In this document: positions 2,252 to 52,529 of the stretch, piece after piece
How the letters are laid out: each line of letters opens with the position of its first letter
How positions within the stretch are numbered: position 1 is the stretch's first letter
Source: an uncultured Christensenella sp.
GTDB taxonomy: Bacteria; Bacillota; Clostridia; Christensenellales; Borkfalkiaceae
Assembly (NCBI GenBank): GCA_910586065.1
Contig: CAJUGI010000001.1
Location: 229,616 to 293,615, forward strand
Direction of reading: 5' to 3'
Length of the DNA: 64,000 nt
Notes under the pieces: model-generated
What the model saw: only the letters and a program-made list of their open reading frames with translations
Database searches by the model: none
Told to the model about the DNA's origin: nothing
Program-made: the position numbers and the translations under genes

Positions 2252-3595
2252 ATGAGTAAGAGAACTAAATTCAAACTGTTGATACTCGCTGCGGTATTAT
2301 GTTTTTCCGTATCGCTGTTTGCGGGGTGTGTCGGCGAACTGCACGTAAACGACTTTTTAAACCAGAACAACGCTTTAAATCAGCAGGTAACGTATTACAG
2401 CAACGGCGGTTACTTCGACGGCACGAACAACATCGTTGAAAAAAATGTTTATTATCACGTGAACGATATAGTCATAACCAATTTCGACGCGATACAGGGC
2501 AAGTCGATAAGGCGCGAAGATTTCGTTTTTGCGGGATGGTATTATGCGGAGCTTACCGACAAGCTCGACGAAGAGGGTAACCCCGAACTCGACGCCGACG
2601 GAAATCACATTTTAGTGCCGGTTTTCGAAGACGAGGAAAAGAAAATAGTTAAAAGCACTACGCGCCGCCTCGAAGATAATCTTAAAATTCAGCAGAACAC
2701 GCATCTTTATGTTTGCGCTCACTGGGAAAAGGATGTCGAACTGCAATTCGTACTTGTCAGTGACGGTCCCGTAACGTTAAAATCGGGTGAACGGGTCAAC
2801 CCCGGCGAAGTTATCGCAAGCAAGCGTTTTGTGAGCGGTTCGGCTTCGGTCGGAACCGCGGCGCCTGCGGAAAGCACGGATTTCACGTTCCTGCAATGCT
2901 ATTCCAATCCGGAATGCACAATTCCCGCACCGTATTCGGTTTCCAAACCTTCGGGCGAAGACGCGCAGGCAAGGGCAACCGTTTACGCAAAATATATCGA
3001 AGGCGTCTGGACGGTCGTAAGAAACAAGAGCGACGTAGGCAGAATGTTCTTCAACATTTATACCGATACTAAATTCTATATTTTAAACGATATTGACTGC
3101 TCGAACGAAAGATTTAATCCGCAGCCGCGTACAAGCAGTTCCAACTGCTATATAGAGGGCAACGGCAAAACACTTTCAAATCTTAAGTTCGAATACCCCG
3201 TAGGTACGGGTATAGACGCCGGCGGCACTTATTCGATATTCGGAACTTTCGGTGAAAACGCCGAAATAAAGAACCTTGTTATGGATAACGTAACCGTGTC
3301 CTACACAACGCGCGTAAACGTAAACGGACTTTACTTCTTCTGTGCGGGCGACAACGGCGCAAAGTTTGAAAACTTTACTTTAAGAAACGTTTCAATGGAA
3401 GTGGATTCAGCCAATACGGTGCCCAACATCCAGCTTATCGACGGCGTTTACCAAAGCGGAAGCTGGCTGTTCGGAAACGTTAGTACCGATGCGGAATATA
3501 CAAAGACCGGCACGGGTAAACTCGTAATCGAAGGTAAAAAGCTTATCGTGCAGGGCGTGGTTGTGGTAGACGAACCCGCAACCGGCGCGCAGTAA
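2252..3595 (+). CDS. Lipoprotein of unknown function with a Listeria/Bacteroides-type repeat motif
   Basis: Signal peptide with lipobox SLFAGC. 'FVFAGWYY' resembles the GWY core of the Flg_new/List_Bact repeat. A GAGG ribosome-binding site lies upstream, and the gene starts 19 nt after the LRR gene. Confidence 0.7.
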   Translation: MSKRTKFKLLILAAVLCFSVSLFAGCVGELHVNDFLNQNNALNQQVTYYSNGGYFDGTNNIVEKNVYYHVNDIVITNFDAIQGKSIRREDFVFAGWYYAELTDKLDEEGNPELDADGNHILVPVFEDEEKKIVKSTTRRLEDNLKIQQNTHLYVCAHWEKDVELQFVLVSDGPVTLKSGERVNPGEVIASKRFVSGSASVGTAAPAESTDFTFLQCYSNPECTIPAPYSVSKPSGEDAQARATVYAKYIEGVWTVVRNKSDVGRMFFNIYTDTKFYILNDIDCSNERFNPQPRTSSSNCYIEGNGKTLSNLKFEYPVGTGIDAGGTYSIFGTFGENAEIKNLVMDNVTVSYTTRVNVNGLYFFCAGDNGAKFENFTLRNVSMEVDSANTVPNIQLIDGVYQSGSWLFGNVSTDAEYTKTGTGKLVIEGKKLIVQGVVVVDEPATGAQ

Positions 3596-3628
3596 AATTA
3601 ATTGAGGAAATTTCAGGAGGTTTAATCT

Positions 3629-6334
3629 ATGAATAAATTTTTTAAAGGAGCGTTAGCGGTCGGAATCGGTTGCACAATGCTTGCTACCACGGCGCTTACG
3701 GCTTGCGGAGGACAGCAGCTCGACCCCGAAACGCGCCCTTTGATGCTTTCGACGGGTGCGCTCGACGATAATTTCAATCCGTTTTTCTATTCGTCTTTAA
3801 ACGACGGCGAAATGGTTTCGATGACGCAGATTTCAATGCTTACAATCGACGGCGACGGTGAAATCGCATGCGGCGACGACTGGCCCACGGTAGTGCAGGA
3901 TTATAATATGACGATGTACGACACAAAGCAGGTCGGCACCGGCAATCCCGTTACCAACGGCAACGAAAACGGCAGAACGGAATATGAATTCCTCATTAAA
4001 AACGGCATCAAATTCAGCGACGGAACGCCGCTCACAATCAAGGACGTGCTCTTTAACCTGTACGTTTATCTCGACTACGCCTACACCGGCTCGTCTACAA
4101 TGTATTCAACGGATATACAGGGCTTAAAGGCTTACCGCACTCAGGACCCTTCGCTTAACGACGACAGCAACACACAGTTCGGCGCAACGTTCCGTGCAAA
4201 CGCACAGCAAAGAATTACCAATCTCAAAAACTGGTCCCAGCGTAAAACCGAAACTTACGACGCGAACGATTTAAAAACCGTTCAAGACCTTTTTCTGGAA
4301 GAAATCGAAAGCGACTGGAACACTCTTTCCACAAGCTGGAAAGAAACGTATAAGCACGCTTACAGCTTTGACGAAGTATGGCAGGCTTATCTCTACCAGG
4401 AGGGCATAATCGAAGTTCAGGAAAAAATCGGCAGCAACGGCGCAATGGTACAGATATTTAACGACAAAAACAACAACGGCAAACGTGACGACGATGAAAA
4501 AGACCCCGCGCAGAGTGAGAAGTATTACACTACTATCGACCCCGATATGACTAATCCCAATAACCCGGGCGTTATACGCGACCAGCGTTTAATCGATTCG
4601 GCTATGGACGCGGTCACTCCCGACAAAATCGCGCAGTACAAAATCGACAATGCCGAAGAGGGCGTAACGATAACCGACCAAATGGCAAAAGAAGGACTTT
4701 GGAAAGAATTCTGTATCGACCGCGTATATACGACTTACACTGCAAGGTCCGAAATTGCCAACGTACTCACGTACTGGGCAACGGCTTCAAAAGTTCTCGA
4801 AGAATTTACGGGCGAAGAAAGTACAAAATATTTCCAAACCCACAAGGGCGTTGACAGTATTTCCGGTGTAACTTACAAAACCGACGTTTCTTCATTCAAA
4901 GGAAAAGAACTCGGCGAAGAACATTCCGTATTAAAAATAGTAATCAACGGTATCGACCCCAAAGCTATTTTCAACTTTGCTTTCACGGTAGCGCCTCTTC
5001 ATTATTATTCCGGCACCTGGACTAATCCCGAAACCGGAGTTACAAAAAACTACGTTGAAGAATTCGACGGCGTTAAAAATTTCGGCGTGGAAGTAGGCAA
5101 CAGCAAATTTTTCAGTCAATGTCTCGGCTCTCCCGAAAAGAATGCGCTTCCCATCGGCGCCGGCGCTTATAAGGCTACTAATCTCAACGGCGACGACAAT
5201 ATAACGGGCGGCTTCAAAACCGGCGACAATATACTGCGTTTTAAGCGTAACGAACACTTCGAAAGCACCGGTAAAAATATAAACAATGCAAAAATCAAGT
5301 TCGTAAACTTCAAAGTTTATAACGACGACCAGATAATGGAAGCGCTTACTACCGGCGAAATCGATTACGGTATGCCCAACGCAAGCCTTACAAACAACAA
5401 CATTGTTTCGCAGCATCAGGATAAACTTACCGGCGTAAGTTACAGAACCGGCGGTTACGGCTATGTGGGCATCAACCCCAAATTTATTCCCGAATACAAG
5501 GTAAGGCAGGCTATAATGAAGTCTATGAACACTTCAATAGCAATCGATATGTACGGACCGAGTCTTGCCGAACCGATTAACAGACCTATGTCCGCAACTT
5601 CGTGGGCTTATCCTCAGGGCGTAGGCGAATACGAATCGATTGCGTACACAACCAACATAGACGAAATTAAAAAACTTGTAACCGATTCCGGCTACGAAAT
5701 TCAGGGCGGCGTTCTCACAAAAGTCAGAAACGCTCAGGGTATGTCCAACGCGGCAATCGGCACAAAGTTAGACTTAAAGTTTACGATTGCCGGCGAATCT
5801 GCTCTTGAACATCCTTCTTACAGAATGTTCCTCGACTCGCAGGAAGTATTAAACTCAATCGGTTTTAAAATTACGGTTTCGGCAGACCCGCAGGCTTTAA
5901 AACAGCTTTCAAGCGGTAACCTTGCGGTTTGGGCGGCTGCGTGGTCGTCTTCGGTTGACCCGGATATGTATCAGATTTACCACAAAGATTCCAAGGCGTC
6001 CAACGTAAACAACTGGAACTATCCCAACATTTTAAACGATACTTCAACGTGGCGTTATGAATACGACGTAATTACCGAACTCAGCGAAAATATCGACCAG
6101 GCAAGAAAAGTTATGGAAAAGGGCGACCGTATTCCTTATTATCACGAATGTCTCGATTTGGTAATGGACCTTGCGGTAGAGTTCCCCGTATATCAGAGAA
6201 ACGATTTGTGCGTTTACAATAAAAACGTAATCAACGGCAACACGCTCGTAAGCGGAAAAACCCCCAAAGGCGAAGATTTACCCAACCACAATATGGGGCT
6301 GTTCTCTAAAATCTGGGAAATTAACTACGTATAA
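3629..6334 (+). CDS. ABC transporter substrate-binding lipoprotein, family 5 (Opp/Dpp/Nik type), unusually large (901 aa)
   Basis: Lipobox ALTACGG. Family-5 core motifs are present ('GIKFSDGTPLTIKDVLFNL', 'YGYVGINPK', 'AAWSSSVDPDMYQIY'). It is followed directly by two permease genes and two ATPase genes. Confidence 0.85.
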   Translation: MNKFFKGALAVGIGCTMLATTALTACGGQQLDPETRPLMLSTGALDDNFNPFFYSSLNDGEMVSMTQISMLTIDGDGEIACGDDWPTVVQDYNMTMYDTKQVGTGNPVTNGNENGRTEYEFLIKNGIKFSDGTPLTIKDVLFNLYVYLDYAYTGSSTMYSTDIQGLKAYRTQDPSLNDDSNTQFGATFRANAQQRITNLKNWSQRKTETYDANDLKTVQDLFLEEIESDWNTLSTSWKETYKHAYSFDEVWQAYLYQEGIIEVQEKIGSNGAMVQIFNDKNNNGKRDDDEKDPAQSEKYYTTIDPDMTNPNNPGVIRDQRLIDSAMDAVTPDKIAQYKIDNAEEGVTITDQMAKEGLWKEFCIDRVYTTYTARSEIANVLTYWATASKVLEEFTGEESTKYFQTHKGVDSISGVTYKTDVSSFKGKELGEEHSVLKIVINGIDPKAIFNFAFTVAPLHYYSGTWTNPETGVTKNYVEEFDGVKNFGVEVGNSKFFSQCLGSPEKNALPIGAGAYKATNLNGDDNITGGFKTGDNILRFKRNEHFESTGKNINNAKIKFVNFKVYNDDQIMEALTTGEIDYGMPNASLTNNNIVSQHQDKLTGVSYRTGGYGYVGINPKFIPEYKVRQAIMKSMNTSIAIDMYGPSLAEPINRPMSATSWAYPQGVGEYESIAYTTNIDEIKKLVTDSGYEIQGGVLTKVRNAQGMSNAAIGTKLDLKFTIAGESALEHPSYRMFLDSQEVLNSIGFKITVSADPQALKQLSSGNLAVWAAAWSSSVDPDMYQIYHKDSKASNVNNWNYPNILNDTSTWRYEYDVITELSENIDQARKVMEKGDRIPYYHECLDLVMDLAVEFPVYQRNDLCVYNKNVINGNTLVSGKTPKGEDLPNHNMGLFSKIWEINYV

Positions 6335-6362
6335 TTAACCGATATAATCGGAGTAAACTTTA

Positions 6363-7361
6363 ATGACAAAATATATTATTAAAAGAATACTTTTGTCCGT
6401 TGTAATTTTGTTTTTCGTTTCGCTTATTCTCTATTTTCTTATAAGGTGTATGCCTGTAAGCTATATTGAGAATAAGTTTAACGAAGCGAATGCTAACGGC
6501 GCAAATCTGACTGAAGAGGACTTAAAACGACTCCTCGCCATTTACGGGTTGGAAGACAGCAGTTTCGGCGGCATAATAAAAGGCTACTTCGGCTGGCTCG
6601 GCAACTTTTTAAAGGGCGATATGGGCACGTCGTTCAAGTACGGCAACCCCGTAAACCAGGTAATAAGCGATTCTATGGGAATTTCTTTTGGAATTTCCTT
6701 TGTCGCGCTCATTCTCGAGCTTATCATCGCTATACCCCTCGGCATCAAGTGCGCAACCAACCAGTACGGTAAATTCGACTACACGGTTACCGTGCTGTGT
6801 ATGGCGCTTATGGCGTTTCCGTCGTTCTTCCTCGGCAATATATTTATTAAAATATTTGCCGTTGACTTAGGTTGGTTCGAAATCGGCGGTTTAAATACGG
6901 GGTCGTTGCAGGGCGTTTCGTTTATAGTAAAATTCTTCGATATGTGCTGGCACCTCGTTTTGCCCATTCTCGTAATGGTGCTCCTCGATATAGGACCTAT
7001 GATGCGCTATACAAGGACGAATACTCTCGAAGTTTTAAACGCCGACTACATAAGAACGGCGCGCGCAAAAGGACTTTCCGAGGGCAAAGTGGTCTATAAG
7101 CACGTTTTCAGAAACACGCTTATCCCGCTTATAACGCTCTTGTCGTCAACGCTTCCCATGCTTTTCGGCGGTGCAATGATTACCGAAACGGTTTTCGCTA
7201 TTCCGGGTATAGGACATACGGCGTACGAGGCGCTTAAAGTGGGCGATATTCCGCTTGCAATGGGCTATAATATGTTTATTGCAATATTAACCGTAATCGG
7301 CGTTTTGCTCGCCGATATAATGTACGCGGTTGTAGACCCTAGAGTTAAATTAGGTAAATAG
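6363..7361 (+). CDS. ABC transporter permease (OppB/DppB-like)
   Basis: Multi-TM protein with the binding-protein-dependent transport motif 'YIRTARAKGLSEGKVVYKHVFRNTLIPLIT' and the C-terminal 'VVDPRVK' typical of OppB. Confidence 0.9.
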   Translation: MTKYIIKRILLSVVILFFVSLILYFLIRCMPVSYIENKFNEANANGANLTEEDLKRLLAIYGLEDSSFGGIIKGYFGWLGNFLKGDMGTSFKYGNPVNQVISDSMGISFGISFVALILELIIAIPLGIKCATNQYGKFDYTVTVLCMALMAFPSFFLGNIFIKIFAVDLGWFEIGGLNTGSLQGVSFIVKFFDMCWHLVLPILVMVLLDIGPMMRYTRTNTLEVLNADYIRTARAKGLSEGKVVYKHVFRNTLIPLITLLSSTLPMLFGGAMITETVFAIPGIGHTAYEALKVGDIPLAMGYNMFIAILTVIGVLLADIMYAVVDPRVKLGK

Positions 7362-7369
7362 GTGTTGCT

Positions 7370-8500
7370 ATGGAAGAAAACAAAAAGGCAACAGGCGTTG
7401 AAATAACTCCGGCTGCGGATGAAGCAAACCTCGGTGAAAGCGTTGAAATAACTGTTACCGAAAAGGAAAACTTCAACGATAACCTGCACGGAGAAAATCT
7501 TACCGAAAGAGCAAAAGTGCTTTCGCCCGGAATGACCGTCTTAAAAAGGTTTTTCCGTTCAAAGCTCTCAATTGTCGGGCTTGTAGCTATTATATTATTG
7601 TTTGTATTTTCGTTTTTCGGACCGCTGTTTTCGCCGTGGAGCGCAAACGGCGGCACCGTAAGGGATTATGATACGGTAAATATTTTAGGTACCTATTCCG
7701 CAATCGAATATGTAGGTCCGGACGGCAATACATATATTGCCTACGACGTTACTATAGAAGGCGATTTATTGAATTATAACAGCCTCGGCGGCATTTCCGG
7801 CAATCACTGGCTGGGAACCACGTTGGAAGGCTACGACGTCTTCACAAGACTTATGTACGGCGGAAGGGTTTCTCTTACAATAGGTTTTGTGGTAATTATT
7901 CTCGAAACTTTAATAGGCGTTATTTTAGGCGGACTTGCCGGGTACTTTGGCAAGTGGGTTGACCAGTTGATAATGCGTATAGTGGACATATTAAGCTGTA
8001 TACCGTCGTTGCCGATAATGCTTATACTAAGCGCCGTGTTCGAAGCCGCAAATATTGTAGACATATCAAGGCTGTATTATATGATGGCGATTTTGTGTTT
8101 ACTCGGTTGGACGGGCACTGCCAGACTTGTAAGGGGACAGATTCTGTCGCTTAGAGAGCAGGAATTTATGCTTGCCGCCAAGTGTTCGGGTCTGTCTACG
8201 GGTAAAAAGATATTCAAGCACTTAATCCCCAATGTAATTCCGCAGCTAATCGTTTCGATGACGCTGGGACTCGGCAGTATAATTCTTATGGAAGCGACTT
8301 TGGGCTATTTGGCGATAGGCGCGCCTGCAGATACTGCAACCTGGGGCACTATGATAGAACTTGCTTCAAGGGCAAGATACAGAAATTACTATCCCAATCT
8401 TTGGCTGGGTGCAGGTATATGCATAACGCTTGCCATACTTGCATTCAACTTTGTCGGAGACGGTCTGCGCGACGCATTCGACCCTAAAATGAAGAGGTAA
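7370..8500 (+). CDS. ABC transporter permease (OppC/DppC-like) with N-terminal extension
   Basis: 'GTTLEGYDVFTRLMYGGRVSL' and 'FMLAAKCSGLSTGKKIFKHLIPNVIPQLIV' are OppC-type motifs. The gene starts 8 nt after the previous gene. Confidence 0.9.
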   Translation: MEENKKATGVEITPAADEANLGESVEITVTEKENFNDNLHGENLTERAKVLSPGMTVLKRFFRSKLSIVGLVAIILLFVFSFFGPLFSPWSANGGTVRDYDTVNILGTYSAIEYVGPDGNTYIAYDVTIEGDLLNYNSLGGISGNHWLGTTLEGYDVFTRLMYGGRVSLTIGFVVIILETLIGVILGGLAGYFGKWVDQLIMRIVDILSCIPSLPIMLILSAVFEAANIVDISRLYYMMAILCLLGWTGTARLVRGQILSLREQEFMLAAKCSGLSTGKKIFKHLIPNVIPQLIVSMTLGLGSIILMEATLGYLAIGAPADTATWGTMIELASRARYRNYYPNLWLGAGICITLAILAFNFVGDGLRDAFDPKMKR

Positions 8501-8502
8501 AA

Positions 8503-9810
8503 ATGGCGGACAACAAGACACAGGACAAAAAGAAACATTATATATCGCGTTCCGAATCCAGACAGATTGCCAAAGAAAACTCCAAGGCGATAAAGTTTTA
8601 CGAAAAGCAGAAAAAACGCAAGGTTAAGCCCGAAGATTACACAACCGAAATGAAAGACGATAAAAATATCGTCGAATTCGAGGATTTACACACTTATTTC
8701 TTTTCGGACGCGGGCACAGTTAAGGCGGTGAACGGTGTGTCTTTCTCTGTTCCCGCAGGCTCTACCGTGGGTGTAGTCGGCGAAAGCGGTTGCGGAAAGA
8801 GCGTCACTTCGCTCTCTTTAATGCAACTCGTACAAGCCCCCAGCGGACAGATTGTAAAGGGTTCCATACGCTTTAAGGCGGACCTTTTCAAACGCGATTC
8901 GCGCGGTAAAAAAATTCCCGTTTACGAAACCGAAACGGACGAAAACGGCGAAGAAAAAGTCAAACTCAACGAAAAGGGCAAACCGATAATAAAGAAAAAC
9001 GCGCTCGGCGGCAATATGTACGAAATGGAAAGTCGCGTGGTTGATATCGCAAAGATGCCTACCGAGGCGATGCGTTCAATCCGCGGCAGGGAAATATCCA
9101 TGATATTTCAGGAGCCGATGACCTCTTTGAATCCCGTATTTACGATAGGCAACCAGCTTGACGAAGTAGGCAGACTGCATATTGAGGGCATTTCCAAACA
9201 GCGCGTAAAAGCGCGCAGTATCGAGATGTTAAAGCTCGTAGGAATCGCCGACCCCGAGGGCGTTTACAAAAAGTACCCCCACGAACTTTCAGGCGGTATG
9301 CGCCAGAGAGTTATGATAGCTATTGCTCTTCTGTGCAATCCCAAGCTTATCGTTGCGGACGAACCTACTACCGCGCTCGACGTTACCATTCAGGCGCAGA
9401 TACTCGACTTATTGCGTGAAATAAAAACAAAAATCAACGGCTCTATAATGCTTATTACGCACGATTTGGGCGTCGTTGCCGAAATGGCGGATTTCGTAGT
9501 GGTTATGTATGCCGGAAAGGTAATAGAAATGGGCACCGCGGAAGATATTTTCGACCATCCCATGCATCCTTACACAATCGGCTTGCAAAAGAGCAAACCC
9601 ACGGTAGATTCGCAGGTTGACGAACTCTATTGCATTCCCGGTTTTGTGCCCAATCCCATTAATATGCCCGATTATTGCTATTTCCGCGACAGATGCGAAA
9701 AGTGCCTTGAAAAATGTGCGGGCGAGTATCCCGGACTCATAAAGGTCAGCGATACCCACAGTGTCTCCTGTTACCTCTATGACGGCGCGGAGGTGAAAAA
9801 TAATGGTTAA
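8503..9810 (+). CDS. ABC transporter ATP-binding protein (OppD-like) with N-terminal extension and an internal insertion
   Basis: Walker A GESGCGKS, signature LSGGMRQR, Walker [14 protein letters not shown] ~55-aa Lys/Glu-rich insert ([15 protein letters not shown]...[10 protein letters not shown]) sits between Walker A and the Q-loop. Confidence 0.9.
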
Positions 9811-11392
9811 TGAAGAGATAACCGAAATAAAAACGGCCGAAACCGGCAAAGACGCAAACCCTTCAACCGAAGTTGAAACGTTAACTGCCGAATCTCACGA
9901 CAGCTTTCTCGAAGTTGACGGACTTTGCAAATATTTTACCGTAGATACCGACATTATCGGCAGACCTACAAAATTTTTAAAGGCTGTTGATAACGTTTCA
10001 TTTAAAGTGCAAAAGGGTAAAACTCTCGGCATAGTCGGCGAAAGCGGCTGCGGTAAAACCACGCTCGGCAGAACCATTTTAAGGCTCTACGACGTAACCC
10101 GCGGCGACGTCTGGTTTAAAGGTCAAAAAGTAACCGACCTTAAAAACCGCGAATTTGATAAGCTCCGTCCCAATATGCAGATGATATTTCAGGACCCTTA
10201 CGCAAGTCTGTCTCCCAGAATCACCGTTGGCGAAATCATAGGCGAGGCGGCGCTTCAGCATAAAATCGTTGAAAAAAGCGCATATCACGACTATATCTTA
10301 AGCGTAATGGATATGTGCGGACTTCAGCCTCACTATTTCGAAAGATATCCGCACGAGTTCTCAGGCGGTCAGAGGCAAAGAATTTGTATTGCCCGCGCGC
10401 TCGCGTTAAAGCCCGAGCTCGTCGTCTGCGACGAACCGGTATCCGCGCTCGACGTTTCTATTCAGGCGCAGATAATCAATATGCTTATCGAACTGAGAAA
10501 GACTCTCGGTTTAACCTATCTTTTTATTTCTCACGACTTGTCTGTAGTAAAACATATTTCCGACGAAGTCGGCGTAATGTACCTCGGCACTATGATGGAG
10601 TACGGCAGTAACGACGCCATATTCAATCACACGTTGCATCCGTATACGCGTGCATTGTTTTCTGCGGTTCCCGTGCCTAATCCGCACGTGAAGATGAACA
10701 GAATAATCCTCCGCGGCGACATTCCCTCGCCCGTCAATCCGCCCAAGGGCTGTAAGTTCCATACGCGTTGCGAAAACTGTATGGATATCTGCACCAAGGC
10801 GGCGCCTCCTTTCAAAGAGGTTGAAAAAGGACATTTCTGCGCTTGCCATCTTTACACTACCGAAGAGGAGCAACAGCAACTTTTAATTAAAGCCGAAGAT
10901 GAAGAAAAAAAGCTTGCCGAAGAGGAAGCTAAAAAAATCACATTTAAAAAGGTGTGGGGAACGGTAACCGAAAAGGTAAAGGACGTAATCAAAAAGGACA
11001 AACCCGAAGAGTCAAAAGCTGAAAACTCTTCAAATCAACCTGCCGAAACGGTTTCCGCAAATAAAGAGGACGTAACGTCCGAACAGGTTGCCGAAGTTCC
11101 GGCTCCCGCAGTGGTTCCCGTTGCGGAAATTGCAACCGAAAAACCTGCAGCCAAAGCTCCCGCAAAGGAGCCCGCACCTCAAAAAGTTTCTTCGGATAAA
11201 ACCGAAAAACCCGCAGTAAATAAATCTGCACCGGCAAGAAAGACGTCGGCGTCTGCAAATAAAAAGCCTGCGCAGAATTCTTCGCAAAAGGGTACAAAAG
11301 TGGCAAAAGCGGCGCCTGCAAATAAATCAGGCTCTGCCGGAGCTAAAAAGCCCGCTGCGAAATCCGAGGTAAAAGATGCCGAGGAAAAATAA
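9803..11392 (+). CDS. ABC transporter ATP-binding protein (OppF-like) with ~178-aa disordered Lys/Ala/Pro-rich C-terminal tail
   Basis: GESGCGKTT, FSGGQRQR, LVVCDEPVSALD and the Opp C-terminal motif 'PPKGCKFHTRC...GHFCACHLY'. A low-complexity tail then runs to the stop. The gene overlaps the previous gene by 8 nt. Confidence 0.9.
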   Translation: MVNEEITEIKTAETGKDANPSTEVETLTAESHDSFLEVDGLCKYFTVDTDIIGRPTKFLKAVDNVSFKVQKGKTLGIVGESGCGKTTLGRTILRLYDVTRGDVWFKGQKVTDLKNREFDKLRPNMQMIFQDPYASLSPRITVGEIIGEAALQHKIVEKSAYHDYILSVMDMCGLQPHYFERYPHEFSGGQRQRICIARALALKPELVVCDEPVSALDVSIQAQIINMLIELRKTLGLTYLFISHDLSVVKHISDEVGVMYLGTMMEYGSNDAIFNHTLHPYTRALFSAVPVPNPHVKMNRIILRGDIPSPVNPPKGCKFHTRCENCMDICTKAAPPFKEVEKGHFCACHLYTTEEEQQQLLIKAEDEEKKLAEEEAKKITFKKVWGTVTEKVKDVIKKDKPEESKAENSSNQPAETVSANKEDVTSEQVAEVPAPAVVPVAEIATEKPAAKAPAKEPAPQKVSSDKTEKPAVNKSAPARKTSASANKKPAQNSSQKGTKVAKAAPANKSGSAGAKKPAAKSEVKDAEEK

Positions 11393-11627
11393 AAAAGACG
11401 ACCTCGATATGGAAACCAGCTTTGCGGATATGAACGTGGAAGGCTTCCGCTGGTACGACCCGTATGCAAAAAAGAACAACGGTGTAAAGCAGGTTAAGCA
11501 AAAGATTTCCCGCAAGGAATACTGGGCGATGGTGCGCGGCGCGTTTGCGGCAATGCTCCCTATGATAGGATGCATTGTTCTGGCAATGGCGGCGGTTGTC
11601 GCCATAGCTTATCTGTGGCTCGGTTAA
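11376..11627 (+). CDS. Small single-pass membrane protein (83 aa), unknown function
   Basis: The ATG lies 6 nt after GAGGT and overlaps the 3' end of the OppF-like gene. There is one C-terminal hydrophobic helix (AAMLPMIGCIVLAMAAVVAIAYLWL). Confidence 0.55.
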   Translation: MPRKNKKDDLDMETSFADMNVEGFRWYDPYAKKNNGVKQVKQKISRKEYWAMVRGAFAAMLPMIGCIVLAMAAVVAIAYLWLG

Positions 11628-11640
11628 ATTAACAAAATCG

Positions 11641-11670
11641 GGGGACGAATATTTTCGTTCCCCAGTTCTT
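11641..11670 (+). terminator. Putative intrinsic terminator of the ABC operon
   Basis: Hairpin ggggacgaa-tatt-ttcgttcccc (one bulged base) followed by a weak T-rich stretch. Confidence 0.45.
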
Positions 11671-11691
11671 TAAAAAAATAAGGAGGCGGAT

Positions 11692-12495
11692 ATGAAGGAA
11701 AAAACCGCAAAAACGGTACGGCTTGTCAGCGGAATTGTGCTCAGCGCAATGACCGTTATTCTCGCCGCGCTGTTTATATGGCAGGTTCTCGATATCCTCG
11801 CCGTCGGCACTTCCGAAGGATATGAAGGTTTCATATTCACAAGGGACGACGTAGCCGCAAGGCTGTTCAGGCTTTTGCCGGCAATCGTCATATGGATAGC
11901 GCTCATTATCGCGGGTTTCGTTTTATGGGAAGTTTTCCCCGTCAAGCCCGCCCGTGCTAAAAACGATAGCAGTTATATTTTAAAACGCTATAAAAAGCGC
12001 ATTCCCGCGGCTGTGCCCGAAGAACTTAAAGGCTCGCTGCAATTCATAAACGGTGAAGAAGAGAACTTAAAAATCATCCGCATTATCGCGGCTGTGATTT
12101 GCGGCGTCGGGGTGCTCTGCGGAGTAATTTATCTTTCCAATCCCTCAAACTTTCCCAAGGATGACGTAACTGCCGAAATGGTAAATATGGTTAAAAACGT
12201 ATTTCCTTGGGCTGCCGCGGCGCTCGTTTTATGGTGCGGCGTAGCAATTTATGAAGAGATTTCTTCAAAAAAGCAGCTCGAACACGCAAAAAAGCTCGCT
12301 GGCAAAATGAAAGTTGAAATTTACCACGGAAAAATCTATGCTTTCTTAAATCACAAATTTTTCCTTTTGGGCGCAAGAATCGTGCTCGGCGTGCTTGCCG
12401 TTGCGTTCATAATCGCCGGCGTTACCGGCAATTCTTTGCACAGCGTTCTTATAAAAGCAATAAATATCTGTACGGAGTGTATCGGTCTTGGCTAA
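11692..12495 (+). CDS. Polytopic membrane protein ending in a CXXC tail (KAINICTECIGLG)
   Basis: AGGAGG ribosome-binding site. There are about five hydrophobic helices. The C-terminal ...ICTECIGLG resembles, from memory, the CD1871A-type CXXC family that sits next to 4Fe-4S genes in clostridia. Its stop overlaps the start of the next gene. Confidence 0.7.
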   Translation: MKEKTAKTVRLVSGIVLSAMTVILAALFIWQVLDILAVGTSEGYEGFIFTRDDVAARLFRLLPAIVIWIALIIAGFVLWEVFPVKPARAKNDSSYILKRYKKRIPAAVPEELKGSLQFINGEEENLKIIRIIAAVICGVGVLCGVIYLSNPSNFPKDDVTAEMVNMVKNVFPWAAAALVLWCGVAIYEEISSKKQLEHAKKLAGKMKVEIYHGKIYAFLNHKFFLLGARIVLGVLAVAFIIAGVTGNSLHSVLIKAINICTECIGLG

Positions 12496-39688: not shown

Positions 39689-39772
39689 CGCGTGCAGCAT
39701 GGGCTGCATATTATAATAGGGGAGTGGCGCCGTTTGCGGAAAATTCGCGCGGGCGGCGGCTTCCGGTAAATC

Positions 39773-39806
39773 CGCGGGCGGGAACTTTTAAATAAGTTCC
39801 CGCCCG
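39773..39806. terminator. Strong hairpin between the convergent spoIVA and small minus-strand ORF (no clear U-tract)
   Basis: 14-bp perfect stem gcgggcgggaactt/aagttcccgcccgc with a 6-nt loop. Confidence 0.5.
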
Positions 39807-39870
39807 CGCCAAGTTTACGGATTAGAAAAATATTTACCGCCACGGAATATGCGGGTTTTCTGCAAAAAGT

Positions 39871-40026
39871 TTATCTGTTTTCTTCCTCTTCCTTTACTTG
39901 CGTAAAAGTTTCGGGAACAAGTAAATTTCCTTTGGAATCGAACAGCGCCGCGTCGTTTTTAAGTCCGGCAATGTAGGCAAGGTACTGTTCGTCGGTCAGT
40001 TTCCTTATTTTTTTCTTTTTTCCCAT
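39871..40026 (-). CDS. Small protein (51 aa), unknown function; below the cutoff of the ORF track
   Basis: The reverse complement reads GGAGGCttttttATG, then MGKKKKIRKLTDEQYLAYIAGLKNDAALFDSKGNLLVPETFTQVKEEEENR, then TAA. Confidence 0.5.
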   Translation of the reverse strand: MGKKKKIRKLTDEQYLAYIAGLKNDAALFDSKGNLLVPETFTQVKEEEENR

Positions 40027-40365
40027 AAAAAAGCCTCCGGGTCCGTTTTTTAATATTATGCCCCCCGCGCCGGCGTTTTATTCCTGACTTTTCGGCGGTT
40101 GTTCGGGCTTAAACGCCTCGAAAAATCGTCAAAACAGCGCAAAAATTGCCCCAAAACACCTAATATTCCCGCTTGAACGAAATCAGCGGCAAAGGGGTGT
40201 ATTTTAAATTGCCCCCCACATATGCCGTGCTTTTTGTTAAATTTTTTTTAAAAAAAGCCAAAAATCTCCGTAATTGTATTTACTTTTTTAAATTTTTGGT
40301 GTAAACTGTTATTAAGTAGCGGCAAAACCGCTTTATTTTCGGCTAAATACTCAAGAGGTGGAATT

Positions 40366-43300
40366 ATGGCAAAAAACGTTTACGATGACGACGAATCTAT
40401 GGAATATCGTCCCCCGAAGAAGGCGGACGTTATCCTCAAAATGGAGCGTGAAATCTCCGCAAGACAGGCTCAGATGCAAACCGAAATTCAAAATTCGGCA
40501 AAGCAGATAGAGGCGGTGCTTGCCGAGCTTCAGAACATCAGAAAGGATTCCGAAGAAGCCGCTAACAAAAACGGCGAACTTATCGGCGCCGTTCAGGGCG
40601 ACAACACGTCTTTAAAGCGCGAAATCAAATATCTCGCCGTTCAGAACGAGAGTATTTTCAATTCGCTTTCCGAAAGAATCAACAAGCTTGAAGAAGCGCT
40701 CGGAAACATTAACGCGGCGGAACCCGTTGCGCAACGGGAAGAAAAGAGCGTTTCTGCCGAAATCGATTACGACGTTCTGGCTGATAAAGTTGCCGAAAGA
40801 ATCGTCGTTCCCGCACCCGTCGTTCAGAGCGACGGCGCACCCGTGGTATATCAGACCGAAAGGCAAGAAGTGGATTACGACCTTCTCGTCGATAAAATCG
40901 TTGCAAGACTGCCTGTACAGGACGATGCTCCTTTATCGGCGAAAGCGGATATCGACGTGGAAGAACTTGCAAGAAAGGTTGCCGAGAACGTAAGCGTTCC
41001 CGCACCCGTATACGCCGAGGCGGCGCCCGCATATGCCGGAGCTGTTCCTGCGGCTCAGGCGGTTACCGTAAGCGCCGAAATAGACTACGACTGCCTTGCC
41101 GAAAAAGTCGCAAGCCGTATTCCCGCACCCGAAGTCCACACAGTATATTCCGAAGCCGCACCCGCGGCGGTTCCCGTTACCGCGGAAATCGATTACGAAG
41201 AACTCGCCGAAAAGGTTGCAAGCAAAATTCCCGCGCCTCAGGTTCAGGCGGTTTATTCCGAAGCCGCACCCGCGGCGGTTCCCGTTACCGCGGAAATCGA
41301 TTACAACGAACTGGCAGATAAAGTTATTTCCCGCATTCCTCTGCAGGAGGCGGTTTCACCCGATTACGTAGCGGCTAAAATAGCCGAGCAGATAATACTT
41401 CCGCAGGCTCCCGAAGTTAAGTTCGACTATGATGAGCTTGCAGGCAAGGTTGCCGAAAAGATAACGTTGCCCCAAGCTGAAGTTCACGCCTATGCCGAAG
41501 CTGCTCCCGCGGCGGTCGCTGCGGAGCTTGACTATGACGCGCTTGCCGAAAAGGTTGCCGAAAAGGTTTCCCTTCCCGAAAACGCCGTCGATTACGAACT
41601 TCTTGCAGACAACATTGTTGCGCGTATTCCCGTACAGGAGAGCATTTCTCCCGAATACGTCGCTTCCCTTATTTCCGAAAATATCCCCGAACGCGAAATA
41701 GTGACCGCGGACGGACAAATCGATTTGGACGCGCTTGCCGGCAAAATAGCGGAACGCATCCCCGCGCAGGAAGCGCAGGCGGTTTATTCCGAAGCCGCTC
41801 CCGCGGCGGTCACTGCGGAGCTTGACTACGACGCGCTTGCCGAAAATATCGTTTCGCGTATTCCCGCACAGGAAACGCAGACGTTTGAAAACGTTGAAAT
41901 CGACTACGAAGCGCTCGCTGAAAAGCTTGCCGGAAGAATTCAACCCTCCGGCGGCGTTGTTGACGAAGAAGAGCTTTCCGACAGAATCGCGTTAAAAGTC
42001 GGTTCACTCAAAGCGGACGACTTCGACGTGCTTGTTGACGACGAGGGTTGCGAATCAATATCCAGAACGATTGCCGAAAAACTCGACTACGAACTTATTG
42101 CGTCGGCGGTTGCCGAAAAACTCCGTGCAGAGCTCGACCCCGCCAATGCGGAAGAAACCGATTACGAGGAAATGGCAAACCGCATAAGCGAAAAGATAAC
42201 GGTTGCGGGCATAAACGAGGATGCAATCGCGGATAAAGCCGCTGCGGCGCTTTCAAATTATCTCCCCGAAATCGACGCAGACGAAATTGCGGATAAAGTT
42301 GCAAATCAGGTAATCAGCGCCCTGCCTTCGGTAGATAACGAATATATCTCGTCATCAGTTGCCGAAAAGATTATAGAAGCACAGGCTGAAAAAGACTTCG
42401 ACGTAATTATCGACGAGGAAGGCGTTGAAACAATTTCCGAAAGACTCGCCGAAGTTGCAGGCAACGATAACACGACCGAACGTTTTAACAGCGTAGATAA
42501 CGACCTTGCCGAAATCAAGGCTCTGCTTGCAAACGGAGCATATGTCGTTCACGAAATCGAAACCGTTCCCGCAGAGGAACAGCCTGCAATCGAAGAGCCC
42601 GAAGACGAACCCGAGGAGACTCTCGTTACCGTCAGCGACATAGTCGAAGAGGTTGAATCAGGACAGGATGAAGAGGAAATAACCGAAGAACAGCCCGAAG
42701 AAGAGGTTGTTGAGGAAGTTCCCGAAGAGACCGAAGAACCCGTTGAAGAAACGGTTGAAGAGGTCACCGAAGAGGAAATAACCGAAGAACAGCCCGAAGA
42801 AGAGGTTGTTGAAGAAGTTCCCGCCGAAACTCAGGTTGAAACCGCCGAAACTGAGGAAAACTCCGAAGAAGACGGCGACGTTGAAGAATTTACTTTGGAC
42901 GATTTGACGGACGGACAGGGCGAAGGCGGCGTAGACTTTGCAAATATGATGCGCTACAACCGCAGTTTCATTGCAAGGATTATCCAGAGCACCGACGACC
43001 AGAAGGGTTATTACGGCGAAGTAAGAAACGCGCTGTTAAGCTACAAAAAGGTCAACTCAAATATTGCCTGGGGCGCAGAACGTTTCCATAAGGGCAGAGA
43101 AACCATTGCCCGCTTTAAAATCCGCGGTAAGACTCTTTGTCTGTATCTTGCGCTCAATCCCAAGGAACACGAGTATTCGGTTTATCATCATAAAGACGTT
43201 TCCGGCGTGAGAATGTTCGACGGTACGCCTATGATGATAAAGGTTCAAAGTCCCCGCGGCGTAAAGAAAGCAATAAGACTTATCGATGAAATGCTCGAAG

Positions 43301-43416
43301 CCCGCGGAGGAATTAAGAGGAACGTTCCTCAGCGTGATTACGCGGCTATGTATCCTTACGAAACTATCGAAGAGCTTATCGAAGACGGACTTGTAAAGGA
43401 CGTAAACAAAAAGTAA
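40366..43416 (+). CDS. 1016-aa acidic repeat protein: N-terminal coiled coil, ~18 'DYxxLAxKVAxxI' repeats, Glu-rich tract, C-terminal globular domain
   Basis: GAGGTGG ribosome-binding site. The repeats and the C-terminal ~150-aa non-repetitive domain are listed in the finding at 40366..43416. Confidence 0.85.
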   Translation: MAKNVYDDDESMEYRPPKKADVILKMEREISARQAQMQTEIQNSAKQIEAVLAELQNIRKDSEEAANKNGELIGAVQGDNTSLKREIKYLAVQNESIFNSLSERINKLEEALGNINAAEPVAQREEKSVSAEIDYDVLADKVAERIVVPAPVVQSDGAPVVYQTERQEVDYDLLVDKIVARLPVQDDAPLSAKADIDVEELARKVAENVSVPAPVYAEAAPAYAGAVPAAQAVTVSAEIDYDCLAEKVASRIPAPEVHTVYSEAAPAAVPVTAEIDYEELAEKVASKIPAPQVQAVYSEAAPAAVPVTAEIDYNELADKVISRIPLQEAVSPDYVAAKIAEQIILPQAPEVKFDYDELAGKVAEKITLPQAEVHAYAEAAPAAVAAELDYDALAEKVAEKVSLPENAVDYELLADNIVARIPVQESISPEYVASLISENIPEREIVTADGQIDLDALAGKIAERIPAQEAQAVYSEAAPAAVTAELDYDALAENIVSRIPAQETQTFENVEIDYEALAEKLAGRIQPSGGVVDEEELSDRIALKVGSLKADDFDVLVDDEGCESISRTIAEKLDYELIASAVAEKLRAELDPANAEETDYEEMANRISEKITVAGINEDAIADKAAAALSNYLPEIDADEIADKVANQVISALPSVDNEYISSSVAEKIIEAQAEKDFDVIIDEEGVETISERLAEVAGNDNTTERFNSVDNDLAEIKALLANGAYVVHEIETVPAEEQPAIEEPEDEPEETLVTVSDIVEEVESGQDEEEITEEQPEEEVVEEVPEETEEPVEETVEEVTEEEITEEQPEEEVVEEVPAETQVETAETEENSEEDGDVEEFTLDDLTDGQGEGGVDFANMMRYNRSFIARIIQSTDDQKGYYGEVRNALLSYKKVNSNIAWGAERFHKGRETIARFKIRGKTLCLYLALNPKEHEYSVYHHKDVSGVRMFDGTPMMIKVQSPRGVKKAIRLIDEMLEARGGIKRNVPQRDYAAMYPYETIEELIEDGLVKDVNKK
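41146..41304 (+). repeat. Intragenic tandem repeat, 108-nt period
   Basis: The 51-nt block tattccgaagccgcacccgcggcggttcccgttaccgcggaaatcgattac occurs identically at 41146 and 41254. Related copies lie near 41491 and 41779. Confidence 0.85.
42670..42830 (+). repeat. Intragenic tandem repeat, 99-nt period, in the Glu-rich tract
   Basis: gaagaggaaataaccgaagaacagcccgaagaagaggttgttga is repeated at 42670 and 42769, encoding EEITEEQPEEEVVEEVP. Confidence 0.85.
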
Positions 43417-50780: not shown

Positions 50781-50796
50781 AAATAAGTGACGTAAA

Positions 50797-50825
50797 GCCG
50801 CCCGCGCAGGTGTTGCGCGGGCGGC
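50797..50825. terminator. Bidirectional terminator hairpin, copy 1 of 3 identical copies
   Basis: gccgcccgcgc-aggtgtt-gcgcgggcggc. It serves dinB (+) and the first HTH gene (-). Identical copies lie at 51621 and 52421. Confidence 0.8.
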
Positions 50826-50838
50826 TTGCTGATTTTGT

Positions 50839-51306
50839 TTAAGTTTCTCTGCCGAGGAGACCGTCGATGGTCATTTTTAAATATTTGGAAAGGATTATCG
50901 CCTTATCCAGCGACGGCGTAAATTTTCCGTTGTACCAATCGTCAAGGCGGTTTAATGAAATGCCTGTTTCCTTACTTATTTTATAGCGCGTTAATTTGTT
51001 GTCTGAAAGAATTTGTTTAAATCTTTTATCAAACGGCGGGGTTTTGTTAAACACTGTCTCTTCGGGGAACGGGATAAAGCCGAGTAAAAAATCAATAGAA
51101 TAATTATAGCAATCTGCGATTTTTATTAAGTTTGAAAGTTTTGGCAGGTATATCTTGCGTAAATATCTGTAAACCTCGGAAAAAGCTATGTCAACCGATT
51201 TTGCAAAATCTTCTACCGTAATTTTTTTGTCATCGATAAGTTCTTTGATATTGTCGCCGAAATCAGATAAAATATCCATAAATTGCTCTCTCGGATTTTT
51301 TATCAT
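50839..51306 (-). CDS. Transcriptional regulator with two tandem XRE/Cro-type HTH domains (copy A)
   Basis: Two HTH units are present ('ITVEDFAKSVDIAFSEVYRYLRK...LIKIADCYNYSIDFLLG' and 'LTRYKISKETGISLNRLDDWYNGK...LSKYLKMTIDGLLG'). The protein ends LLGRET, like copy B. Confidence 0.8.
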   Translation of the reverse strand: MIKNPREQFMDILSDFGDNIKELIDDKKITVEDFAKSVDIAFSEVYRYLRKIYLPKLSNLIKIADCYNYSIDFLLGFIPFPEETVFNKTPPFDKRFKQILSDNKLTRYKISKETGISLNRLDDWYNGKFTPSLDKAIILSKYLKMTIDGLLGRET

Positions 51307-51331
51307 TATTCCCTATTACTTACAAAATTAC

Positions 51332-51360
51332 TTGCTTTTTGAAGTAGTAGGGTATATAAT
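51332..51360 (+). promoter_or_regulatory. Promoter of small gene A with overlapping imperfect palindrome
   Basis: TTGCTT-N17-TATAAT. The inverted repeat CCCTATTACTTACAAA (51311-51326) / TTTGAAGTAGTAGGG (51338-51352) brackets the -35. Confidence 0.6.
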
Positions 51361-51399
51361 TTCATTACACGAAATGCAAAAAAATTAAGGAGTTTTGGA

Positions 51400-51612
51400 A
51401 TGGATAAAAGACAAAAGCAAAATCACATATTTGTAAAGGACAGCGGAGTGGAGGCGTTGGACGGCAGAACGGACAGTTTGAGTTTGCTGTTGGACTTGAA
51501 AGTTCTGATTAAGGAATATTACACTGCAACGTTTACGGCGGACGAGAGGGGGCTTGTGATAGGTTTTAACAACGGTCAGAAATTTAAAATATCGGTGGAA
51601 GAAATAAAGTAA
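51400..51612 (+). CDS. Small acidic protein (70 aa), unknown function (copy A)
   Basis: AAGGAG ribosome-binding site. 61 of the last 64 residues are identical to copy B. Confidence 0.7.
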   Translation: MDKRQKQNHIFVKDSGVEALDGRTDSLSLLLDLKVLIKEYYTATFTADERGLVIGFNNGQKFKISVEEIK

Positions 51613-51620
51613 CTTAAAAA

Positions 51621-51649
51621 GCCGCCCGCGCAGGTGTTGCGCGGGCGGC
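51621..51649. terminator. Bidirectional terminator hairpin, copy 2
   Basis: Identical to 50797..50825. The 63 nt from 51621..51683 equal 50797..50859. Confidence 0.8.
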
Positions 51650-51662
51650 TTGCTGATTTTGT

Positions 51663-52100
51663 TTAAGTTTCTCTGCCGAGGAGTTCGTCTAATGTGCAGT
51701 TAAAATATTTTGCGAGTTTAATTAAGTTGTCAACGGTAGGAAACCGTTTGCCGTTGTACCAGTCGTCAACGCTCTGTTTTGCAAAATGAATTTCCTGACG
51801 GAACTTATATCTTGTTAAATTTTTATCCTTCAATAGATGCCTGAACCTTTCAGAAAACGGCGGCGTCGGTTTGAGCGTTATATTTTGATTTTCGGACAAC
51901 CCCAAAATGAAGTCTATTGAACACTTAAAATAATCCGCAATCAAAACCAGATTTGGTAAAGTCGGTAAAATTTCTTTGCGTAAATATTTGTAAATAACCG
52001 AACGGTCAATTTTTGTTTCATCGGCAAACGCTTTGGGCGTTAAATCATTGTCAAAAATCAATTCGGATAAATTTTCACCAAAACTTTCTACAATTTCCAT
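51663..52100 (-). CDS. Transcriptional regulator with two tandem XRE/Cro-type HTH domains (copy B)
   Basis: Same architecture as 50839..51306, with roughly half the residues identical by eye. The last six codons (LLGRET) are identical. Confidence 0.8.
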   Translation of the reverse strand: MEIVESFGENLSELIFDNDLTPKAFADETKIDRSVIYKYLRKEILPTLPNLVLIADYFKCSIDFILGLSENQNITLKPTPPFSERFRHLLKDKNLTRYKFRQEIHFAKQSVDDWYNGKRFPTVDNLIKLAKYFNCTLDELLGRET

Positions 52101-52147
52101 AACGTACTCTCTTAAATTAATTATTCCTTACGTTTGCCTAAAAATAC

Positions 52148-52176
52148 TTGCAATAGGCAAACATTAGGCTTATAAT
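52148..52176 (+). promoter_or_regulatory. Promoter of small gene B with overlapping perfect 8-bp inverted repeat
   Basis: TTGCAA-N17-TATAAT. TTTGCCTA (52133-52140) and TAGGCAAA (52154-52161) flank the -35. Confidence 0.6.
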
Positions 52177-52208
52177 ATAAGTACACAAAATTAATAAGGA
52201 GTCTGTAT

Positions 52209-52412
52209 ATGAAGAAACAAAATCACATATTTGTAAAGGATAGCGGGGTGGAGGCTTTGGACGGCAGAACGGACAGCTTGAGTTTGCTGTTGGATTTAAA
52301 AGTTCTGATTAAAGAATATTACACTGCAACGTTTACAGTGGACGAGAGGGGGCTTGTGATAGGGTTTAACAACGGTCAGAAATTTAAAATAACTGTGGAC
52401 GAGATAAAGTAA
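52209..52412 (+). CDS. Small acidic protein (67 aa), unknown function (copy B)
   Basis: AAGGAG ribosome-binding site. About 92% nucleotide identity to copy A by eye. Confidence 0.7.
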   Translation: MKKQNHIFVKDSGVEALDGRTDSLSLLLDLKVLIKEYYTATFTVDERGLVIGFNNGQKFKITVDEIK

Positions 52413-52420
52413 CTTAAAAA

Positions 52421-52449
52421 GCCGCCCGCGCAGGTGTTGCGCGGGCGGC
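52421..52449. terminator. Terminator hairpin, copy 3
   Basis: Same hairpin, here followed by tttttatt. Confidence 0.85.
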
Positions 52450-52529
52450 TTTTTATTATTGTTTTTATCTGCAATACGGCGACAAAGGAGATTATGCGGC
52501 TTTGCCGCCCTTTGAAAGGACAGAGGTGA

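Follow-up and report, generated by a model that had tools for sequence, protein, structure and literature searches.

A strain-variable array of double helix-turn-helix regulators and a conserved small protein between dinB and degV in an uncultured Christensenella

We analyzed a 64,000-nt stretch of genomic DNA from an uncultured Christensenella sp. (contig CAJUGI010000001.1 of assembly GCA_910586065.1, forward strand, positions 229,616 to 293,615; hereafter the 64-kb window, with position 1 as its first letter), in which two units lie in tandem between positions 50797 and 52449, each carrying a minus-strand regulator with two helix-turn-helix (HTH) domains (R1 and R2) and a plus-strand gene for a small protein (S1 and S2). 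Taken as a whole, the data are best explained, and we think probably explained, by a strain-variable array of self-contained cassettes, each composed of a terminator, a regulator, an operator/promoter, and a small gene, rather than by one duplication. Under this explanation, each regulator would repress its own copy of the small gene and probably also its own gene, with one double-HTH monomer predicted on each arm of an inverted repeat and the two arms clamping the −35 box. The regulator alleles would be mutually orthogonal, and the conserved small gene and the terminator would together act as a recombination handle, providing homology arms for the gain, loss, and exchange of cassettes.

Cassette variation and recombination between strains

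Dozens of independent assemblies from this species encode proteins identical to S1 and S2, and the flanking dinB, degV, and GH3 genes are 97 to 100% identical between these loci. Writing each cassette in brackets, the layout of the window, [R1-S][R2-S], recurs in at least nine other independent assemblies and is therefore not an assembly artifact, a possibility that had been raised in an earlier note on this DNA made from its letters alone. Other strains carry further regulator alleles, R3 and R4, or a different number of cassettes: [R2-S][R3-S] in L029, [R1-S][R2-S][R4-S] in L039 and L043, [..][R3-S] in L011, L037, and L038, and a single cassette, [R2-S], in L033 (one contig, at about 5× coverage). 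The earlier note had described the locus as a tandem duplication, a description that these additional alleles and differing cassette numbers in conspecific strains do not support.

Within the window, the units are delimited by a 29-nt hairpin, GCCGCCCGCGCAGGTGTTGCGCGGGCGGC, which the 64 kb contain in just three exact copies, at 50797, 51621, and 52421. The hairpin-to-hairpin spacings of 824 and 800 nt, together with a Y-family polymerase gene of the dinB type upstream (Pfam IMS and IMS_C), agree with the two units that had been placed next to dinB; a DegV gene (Pfam) lies downstream. With its flanks (two flanking pairs), the hairpin forms a 14-bp stem (about −31 kcal/mol on either strand) that is perfectly paired, rich in GC, and accompanied by a T tract, and the scan classed it as terminator-like on both strands, as had been proposed. 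Hairpin 1 (50797 to 50825, terminator-like on the plus strand) forms the left edge of the array and would be a terminator common to dinB (plus strand) and R1 (minus strand). Hairpin 2 (51621 to 51649; −31.6 and −30.7 kcal/mol on the two strands) would terminate both S1 (plus) and R2 (minus), and hairpin 3 (52421 to 52449; −35.6 kcal/mol) would terminate S2 at the right edge. Hairpins 1 and 2 are each followed by a minus-strand tail made up of a spacer of 13 nt, the stop codon, and the final six regulator codons (LLGRET), at 50826 to 50859 for R1 and at 51650 to 51683 for R2, and the two tails are 100% identical; no tail follows hairpin 3. Hairpin and tail together thus give a perfect match of 63 nt between 50797 to 50859 and 51621 to 51683, as the earlier note had seen. 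Rfam and tRNA scans of the window returned no match, so the conserved block shows no sign of being a known RNA. We also observed that 15 nt between the dinB stop codon and hairpin 1 (window positions 50781 to 50796) resemble the small gene at its 3′ end (AAATAAGTGACGT-AAAGCC versus AAATAAAGTAACTTAAAAAGCC) and may be a remnant, judging from this similarity, of an earlier small-gene copy at the left array edge.

The divergence between the two units is strongly uneven. In 40-column windows of the unit-to-unit alignment, identity is 100% at the start, 40 to 65% in the regulator and intergenic parts, and 90 to 95% in the small gene, and the block 51415 to 51664 is 92% identical at the DNA level to 52215 to 52464. 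S1 (70 amino acids [aa], 51400 to 51612) and S2 (67 aa, 52209 to 52412) share 62 of 66 aligned residues (94%); the nucleotide identity of about 92% given earlier is reproduced, and the count of three differences among 64 residues becomes four among 66. By contrast, only 68 of 146 aligned residues are identical between R1 (50839 to 51306) and R2 (145 aa, 51663 to 52100), i.e., 47%, close to the half that had been estimated. In terms of substitution rates, the small genes have a synonymous rate (dS) of 0.42 and a nonsynonymous rate (dN) of 0.025, so that the dN/dS is about 0.06 and the small gene is under strong purifying selection, as one of the earlier suggestions had it; for the regulators, the proportion of synonymous differences is saturated (pS 0.74 to 0.79) and dN is 0.47. 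The gap between a dS of 0.42 and saturation, together with 63 nt of identity that span noncoding DNA, is more than selection at the protein level alone can account for.

The small genes of the population point to exchange. They fall into nine DNA haplotypes with 40 variable sites, and these haplotypes are mosaics. The 5′ end of the small gene (encoding MDKRQKQ, MGKKQKQ, or MKKQ) always tracks the upstream regulator and promoter, while a 3′ end encoding ..TVDERG..KITVDEIK, to which the 3′ half of S2 belongs, is always found in the last cassette beside degV, whichever regulator precedes it. Internal copies instead end in ..TADE(R/K)G..KISVEEI(K/R), and two haplotypes (d6 and d9) are intermediate recombinants. 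The regulators, which share 29 to 56% of their residues in pairwise comparisons of R1 to R4, show the same at their ends: the C-terminal 25 aa of R3 and R4 are identical, and one R1 variant carries the R2-type ...DELLGRET end. The mosaic haplotypes and the regulator tails place exchange points within the small gene and at the regulator tail. From these patterns, the conserved segment (small gene, hairpin, and tail) appears to be the substrate of homologous recombination, and the variable segment (regulator and operator) the part that is added, deleted, or swapped. The gene conversion or recombination proposed in the earlier note is therefore well supported, as is its view that the mosaic is unlike the product of a simple duplication. 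A locus from another taxon (L068, positions 95 to 1087), in which two small genes with identical C-terminal halves and unrelated N-terminal halves flank one regulator, presents at the sequence level the same mosaic pattern.

Regulators and their putative operators

Both regulators are members of the XRE (Cro/C1-type) HTH superfamily, with Pfam matches above the gathering score in two separate stretches each (R1, HTH_3 at 61.6 bits against a cutoff of 23 and HTH_26 at 53.2 bits against a cutoff of 22; R2, HTH_26 at 66.9 and HTH_3 at 65.1 bits), which agrees with the earlier reading of two minus-strand double-XRE regulators. Counted from the first ATG, R1 is 155 aa long, but alignment with R2 to R4 indicates that its start is probably Met10 (51279), giving the 146 aa seen in its relatives. 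A profile search for the regulator returned at least 889 clusters, almost all of 142 to 147 aa. Among 121 family sequences, the scaffold helices are conserved (entropy 1.1 to 1.3), the scaffold consisting of helices 4 and 5 of both domains, a PPF motif in the linker, and the LGRE end. The most variable parts are helices 2 and 3 of the first HTH domain, helix 2 of the second, and the linker (1.9 to 2.2); helix 3 of the second domain, its recognition helix, is less variable (1.5). Attempts to place the regulators in a narrower family gave the following. The RstR family (NCBIfam NF041951) was rejected, with scores of 63.7 and 70.5 bits below the cutoff of 80 and a match to the single-HTH part only; HigA models of NCBIfam gave 17 to 18 bits against a cutoff of 47.7; PADLOC-DB 2.0 yielded generic HTH matches only (capH, RmrA, and control protein, at 13 to 34 bits); and the matches among solved structures were to single-HTH proteins (3op9 and 7t8i, the latter an Xre-family regulator of ICEBs1), with no two-HTH relative among them.

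All four control regions share the sequence CTTGC(A/T)(A/T), a 17-nt spacer, TATAAT, and an AAGGAG ribosome-binding site. R1, R2, and R4 each have an inverted repeat of their own, of 15 to 19 nt, which flanks the −35 hexamer and fills the spacer, with arms CCCTATTACTT / AAGTAGTAGGG for R1, CCTTACGTTTGCCTA / TAGGCAAACATTAGG for R2, and TGTCCAACAATATGTATTT / AAATACATAGAGTTGGACA for R4; for R3, the inverted-repeat search found none in the control region, where visual inspection shows at best a weak dyad of 8 nt, with one mismatch, at the same place. The −35, the −10, and the ribosome-binding site are thus conserved across cassettes, and the repeat arms are not. In cassette 1 (operator/promoter at 51307 to 51360), the arms TATTCCCTATTACTT and AAGTAGTAGGGTATA occupy 51307 to 51321 and 51342 to 51356, around a −35 TTGCTT at 51332 to 51337 and a −10 TATAAT at 51355 to 51360, with AAGGAG upstream of 51400. 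In cassette 2 (52126 to 52176), the arms lie at 52126 to 52140 and 52154 to 52168, the −35 TTGCAA at 52148 to 52153, and the −10 TATAAT at 52171 to 52176. Of the two divergent promoters described earlier, the scan called a sigma-70-type promoter for small gene 2 only (TTGCAA-17-TATAAT, 52148 to 52176); cassette 1 has TTGCTT-17-TATAAT at the matching position, without a call. The right arm of operator 1 is unique in the window, and no copies of the operators were found elsewhere in the 64 kb.

The best evidence here that these inverted repeats are operators comes from covariation in the R2 lineage. R2-like regulators that are 58 to 70% identical overall occur in other species and genomic neighborhoods, and where they share the recognition helices of R2 (..IDRSVIYKYLRKE.. 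and ..FAKQSVDDWYNGKR..), the putative operator is almost unchanged as well (L084 to L086). Two such R2-lineage regulators, P0177 and P0232, retain it in unrelated contexts, even without a small gene, and in L089 the helices and the operator are both slightly altered relative to R2. In L087 and L088, the R2-type operator has been kept although the small gene between two tandem regulators has been lost; the copy in L087 reads CCCTTACGTTTGCCTAAAAATACTTGCAATGGGCAAAC and lies between the two regulators (positions 2826 to 3000), with no small gene left. Since helices and operator are kept across species, the regulators represent old lineages, with R1 and R2 having separated before the array arose. 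This also argues against the earlier suggestion that diversifying selection drove the regulators apart in place, the lineages being both separate and old.

The position of the operators further suggests how the regulators might act. Because the putative operator overlaps the −35 and the spacer of a near-consensus promoter, which should need no activator, repression appears to be a better reading than activation, and the length of the arms suggests that one double-HTH monomer could occupy each of them. In cassette 2, as well as in the R3 and R4 cassettes (L011 and L039), the −35 hexamer TTGCAA is palindromic and stands at the center of the operator dyad; given this symmetry, promoters pointing either way could in principle make use of it.

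The small-protein family and the distribution of the module

A search with the single small-protein sequence found only 11 relatives, while an exhaustive profile search extended the family to 254 representative clusters, nearly all of 50 to 100 aa. Contrary to the earlier description of the small proteins as acidic, S1 and S2 both have an isoelectric point (pI) of 6.55, near neutral, in a family whose members are mostly acidic (median pI 5.0). An AlphaFold2 model built from an 89-sequence alignment has a confident core (predicted local distance difference test [pLDDT] score of 81.5) with a disordered N terminus, a helix at residues 26 to 38, and a three-stranded sheet, and places an invariant ..F-N-N-G-Q-x-F.. 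motif at its last turn. In agreement with the earlier note, which did not recognize the small protein, searches of Pfam, NCBIfam, PHROGs, and PADLOC gave no match, and neither did tblastn against 50,697 deposited phage genomes and the deposited plasmids. Foldseek with the model returned nothing at an E value of ≤0.001 from PDB and BFVD. Two weaker leads were dismissed: a PDB profile search matched only a short “FdNGQqF” strand (2l6n_A, E value of 0.003), and a weak Foldseek match to the 58-residue chain B of 5yrz, which we take to be the HicA chain of a Streptococcus pneumoniae toxin-antitoxin entry, did not withstand an hhalign comparison with what we take to be the Escherichia coli HicA sequence (probability of 0.9%). 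Membership in the type II toxin-antitoxin systems of the HigA, HipB, or HicB types is likewise not indicated, since the genes are divergent and the small protein matches no toxin family. The small protein probably does not bind DNA, as its family lacks an HTH and is acidic for the most part. By analogy with the phage modules discussed below, our best guess is that it is a protein-binding regulatory partner of the antirepressor or switch type.

A divergently transcribed XRE regulator adjoins the small gene at every evaluable locus. This partner is usually a double-HTH protein, and in one orthologous group it is a single-HTH protein of 70 aa. In the reverse direction, three regulators that had not been found via the small protein (P0240 and P0259, which rank among the most abundant, and P0177, which is R2-like) each led to a member of the small family. 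The regulator/small-protein pair is therefore an obligate, widespread, and unannotated module. Its hosts are Borkfalkiaceae, Christensenellaceae, and other Clostridia metagenome-assembled genomes (MAGs), and a metagenome scan added only nine further loci. One contig (L020) is labeled as a Corallococcus (myxobacterial) MAG; as all other hosts are Clostridia, this label may be a binning error.

The number of regulators per locus varies. L015 and L016 have four tandem regulators and one small gene; two regulators are present in L013, L020, and L087, and two full cassettes in L005 and L068. In the sister strains L078 and L079 (about positions 3100 to 4441), three and two tandem double-HTH regulators, respectively, lie beside one 59-aa small gene. 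A Y-family polymerase gene about 4 kb away echoes the dinB of the window. In L005 (positions 6260 to 11914), there is also a cassette-like unit with a 165-aa double-HTH regulator and a different, 104-aa protein, followed by a 1,565-aa DUF5724/DUF4132/DUF7737 protein. Downstream of the module in L087 are genes for proteins with AAA_14/DUF4143, CTD7, and MC3 domains, which are typical of conflict systems, and at the same place in L088 are small open reading frames (ORFs) and another HTH gene; the comparison suggests a variable island beside the module.

The module is also present in phage contigs of IMG/VR, where it lies between methyltransferase, MetK, and sigma-factor genes on one side and the large terminase gene on the other, with the small gene heading the rightward genes. 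The block before the large terminase that these contigs (L023 to L028 and L071 to L073) have in common includes C5 and N6/N4 DNA methyltransferases and an S-adenosylmethionine synthetase (MetK). It also includes, in L023, L025, and L026, an ORF of 177 to 196 aa that looks sigma-factor-like by eye only. L071 and L072 further carry an Amidoligase_2 and GGACT pair, and ORFs that match these two in size and position are present in L025, L027, and L028, identified by these features and not by a domain scan.

These data define an obligate two-gene module, composed of two-HTH regulators of uniform length (about 142 to 147 aa, at least 889 clusters) and a small family of 60 to 75 aa (254 clusters), which is common in gut Clostridia (Christensenellales-type MAGs), occurs also in their phages, and lacks a described function. 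The locus itself is a clean example of a coding gene and a terminator that would act together as a recombination handle for cassette turnover between strains. The putative pairs of naturally orthogonal repressors and operators on one scaffold could be useful for studying the evolution of HTH specificity and for synthetic circuits in anaerobes.

Related systems and competing explanations

Several known systems share features with the module. The immunity regions of heteroimmune lambdoid phages consist of divergent repressor and operator alleles between conserved flanks and are swapped by homologous recombination in these flanks. The likeness lies in discrete, deeply divergent repressor-plus-operator alleles between conserved flanks; unlike the lambdoid case, the locus here is not in a prophage, several alleles stand side by side in one genome, and the divergent partner is the conserved part, whereas lambda Cro is a covarying operator-binding protein. 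Xre of the defective Bacillus subtilis prophage PBSX is a repressor transcribed divergently from a lytic operon that leads, via a sigma-like factor, to terminase genes, an arrangement close to that of our phage contigs, but this repressor has a single HTH, no small partner of the present family, and no arrays. In Caulobacter and its phage phiCbK, radiating XRE paralogues form a host-encoded, expanded set with phage relatives, as here; these are single-HTH proteins of overlapping function that act as heteromers on a common regulon (PMC10688885), whereas our operators differ between alleles and the small-protein partner is obligate. The nearest characterized protein is phiCDKH01_17 of a Clostridioides difficile phage, a two-HTH XRE protein that acts as the repressor of a divergent promoter and binds to the neighboring regulatory region (PMC11172241). 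Its match to R2 is weak (35% identity over 61% of R2, E value of 2e-7), and it differs in its length of 181 aa, in belonging to a lysogeny module beside an integrase, and in a divergent operon that encodes KilAC-type antirepressors (PMC11172241).

Closest in layout are the phage modules composed of a transcription factor and a small ORF (TF-smORF), in which the factor activates the smORF and the smORF product inactivates the phage’s own cI (Silpe, Duddy & Bassler 2023, Nature; PMC10432266). As in those modules, an XRE-type factor is divergent from a gene for a domainless protein of less than 100 aa, a few recognition-helix residues set promoter specificity, modules occupy several phage loci, including positions beside late genes, and coresident modules are mutually orthogonal, this last property and the setting of specificity by helix residues being predicted here. 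Unlike in those modules, the operator position here suggests repression, no cI-like target was seen in the window, and there are two HTH domains, one conserved small family, and tandem arrays on the chromosome. Relative to both the TF-smORF pairs and the lambdoid regions, the module is set apart by its two-HTH regulator, the single conserved small family, and stacked chromosomal arrays with turnover between strains.

The earlier note had floated three roles for the cassette, a regulator-controlled effector, an antirepressor-like pair, and an immunity-type module, and each is conceivable. One may first ask whether the array serves as immunity, with captured phage repressors acting in trans on elements that carry a matching operator before their late or packaging operon, and with arrays that grow and turn over since each added regulator protects against another element. 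We consider this unlikely, though worth keeping in sight. It would account for the place of the module before the large terminase in phage contigs, with the small gene heading a rightward operon; for relatives with two to four tandem regulators and only a single small gene, which makes the regulators look like the payload; for regulator numbers and alleles that vary between sister strains; and for the conflict-system-type genes that adjoin the L087 module and are absent in L088. The viral data do not bear it out: a search of IMG/VR with R1 and R2 (R3 and R4 were not used) found no close relative of R1 and only 35%-identical ones of R2, and stricter operator patterns of the R1, R2, and R4 types (R3 not being scanned) had 0 matches in 2.9 million viral contigs. 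A looser R2 dyad gave 11 matches, about the number expected by chance on a rough estimate, none of them spaced by the native 13 nt. On chromosomes, moreover, different species have kept the R2 lineage together with its operator. It may just be that too few phages of these mouse-gut taxa have been sampled. It is tempting to go one step further and to speculate, on slightly weaker grounds, about a recombination-driven “repressor library” of gut Clostridia, in which orthogonal repressors would be collected, stacked, and exchanged through the homology arms that the conserved small gene and terminator provide and, acting in trans, would silence specific phages or mobile elements that enter the cell, with the small protein as a common switch component or output. 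If true, such a library would be an immunity array at the level of transcription, formally comparable to conserved repeats that separate variable specificity units, and should the arrays prove to be devices for immunity or prophage control, phage-host biology would gain a further layer, in a part of the gut microbiota that has received little study. Somewhat more doubtful again is a switch of the TF-smORF type, in which the small protein would be the antirepressor of another repressor, for example that of a resident prophage, and the XRE regulator would time its production. The layout is the same, one published pair adjoins late genes (PMC10432266), and a mostly acidic small family without HTH fits a protein-binding role. 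Yet the factor of those modules activates, while the operator here overlaps the −35 and spacer of a near-consensus promoter; the described smORFs are mutually unrelated and specific for their own cI, while here one conserved family of 254 clusters is nearly identical between cassettes; and no prophage or cI-like target was seen in the 64-kb window.

The other explanations fare considerably worse. That the small protein is a toxic or abortive-infection effector, harming cell or phage and silent until a trigger removes the regulators, would suit the strong promoter, the tight-looking placement of the operator, and the several independently controlled copies of one product, which would amount to an OR gate; we nevertheless think it improbable, given that the protein matches no PADLOC, toxin, or defense model, that the HicA similarity was rejected, that the layout is divergent rather than the operon typical of type II toxin-antitoxin systems, and that arrays with several regulators and one small gene misfit an OR gate. 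One old tandem duplication followed by unequal selection, with the small gene held and the regulators drifting or driven apart in place, can draw on two units of the same gene order and similar length and on the purifying selection on the small gene. It leaves unexplained the synonymous gap and the 63 nt of perfect identity over noncoding spacer and hairpin, and it conflicts with an R1/R2 split older than the array, with strains that carry R3 or R4 in the same slots, and with recombinant small-gene haplotypes; a simple old duplication is thus largely refuted, and we rate this course of events marginally below the toxic effector. Least credible by far is an integron-like, site-specific array with the hairpin as an attC-type site. 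Tandem cassettes separated by an identical palindrome would be expected of it, but the roughly 4 kb to either side contain no gene for an integrase or other recombinase in any strain examined, the hairpin, with its perfect GC-rich stem and T tract, is a plain terminator, the exchange points fall inside the small gene, as expected of homologous recombination, and each cassette has its own promoter.

The cassette-array explanation itself faces several difficulties. The one-cassette state of L033 may result from an assembler jump across the 64 nt of identical hairpin and tail. Each regulator allele is invariant at the DNA level across its occurrences (0 or 1 differences, with R1 identical in 17 loci including the window), but degV is likewise almost invariant across strains, so that this invariance may reflect only a recently shared segment, and we do not lean on it. 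With respect to the mechanism, a promoter scan found none for the regulator genes, and the preference for repression over activation derives solely from operator position and promoter quality; in cassette 1, where the −35 TTGCTT is weak, activation is possible. The weakest step is the role of the small protein, which is a guess given that no family, fold, or defense match was obtained.

Elsewhere in the window, an ORF of 1,016 aa (40366 to 43416) contains in-frame tandem repeats of 108 nt (2.5 copies, 41058 to 41324) and 99 nt (2.1 copies, 42670 to 42872) and is preceded by 678 nt (39689 to 40365) without any ORF of 60 aa or more.

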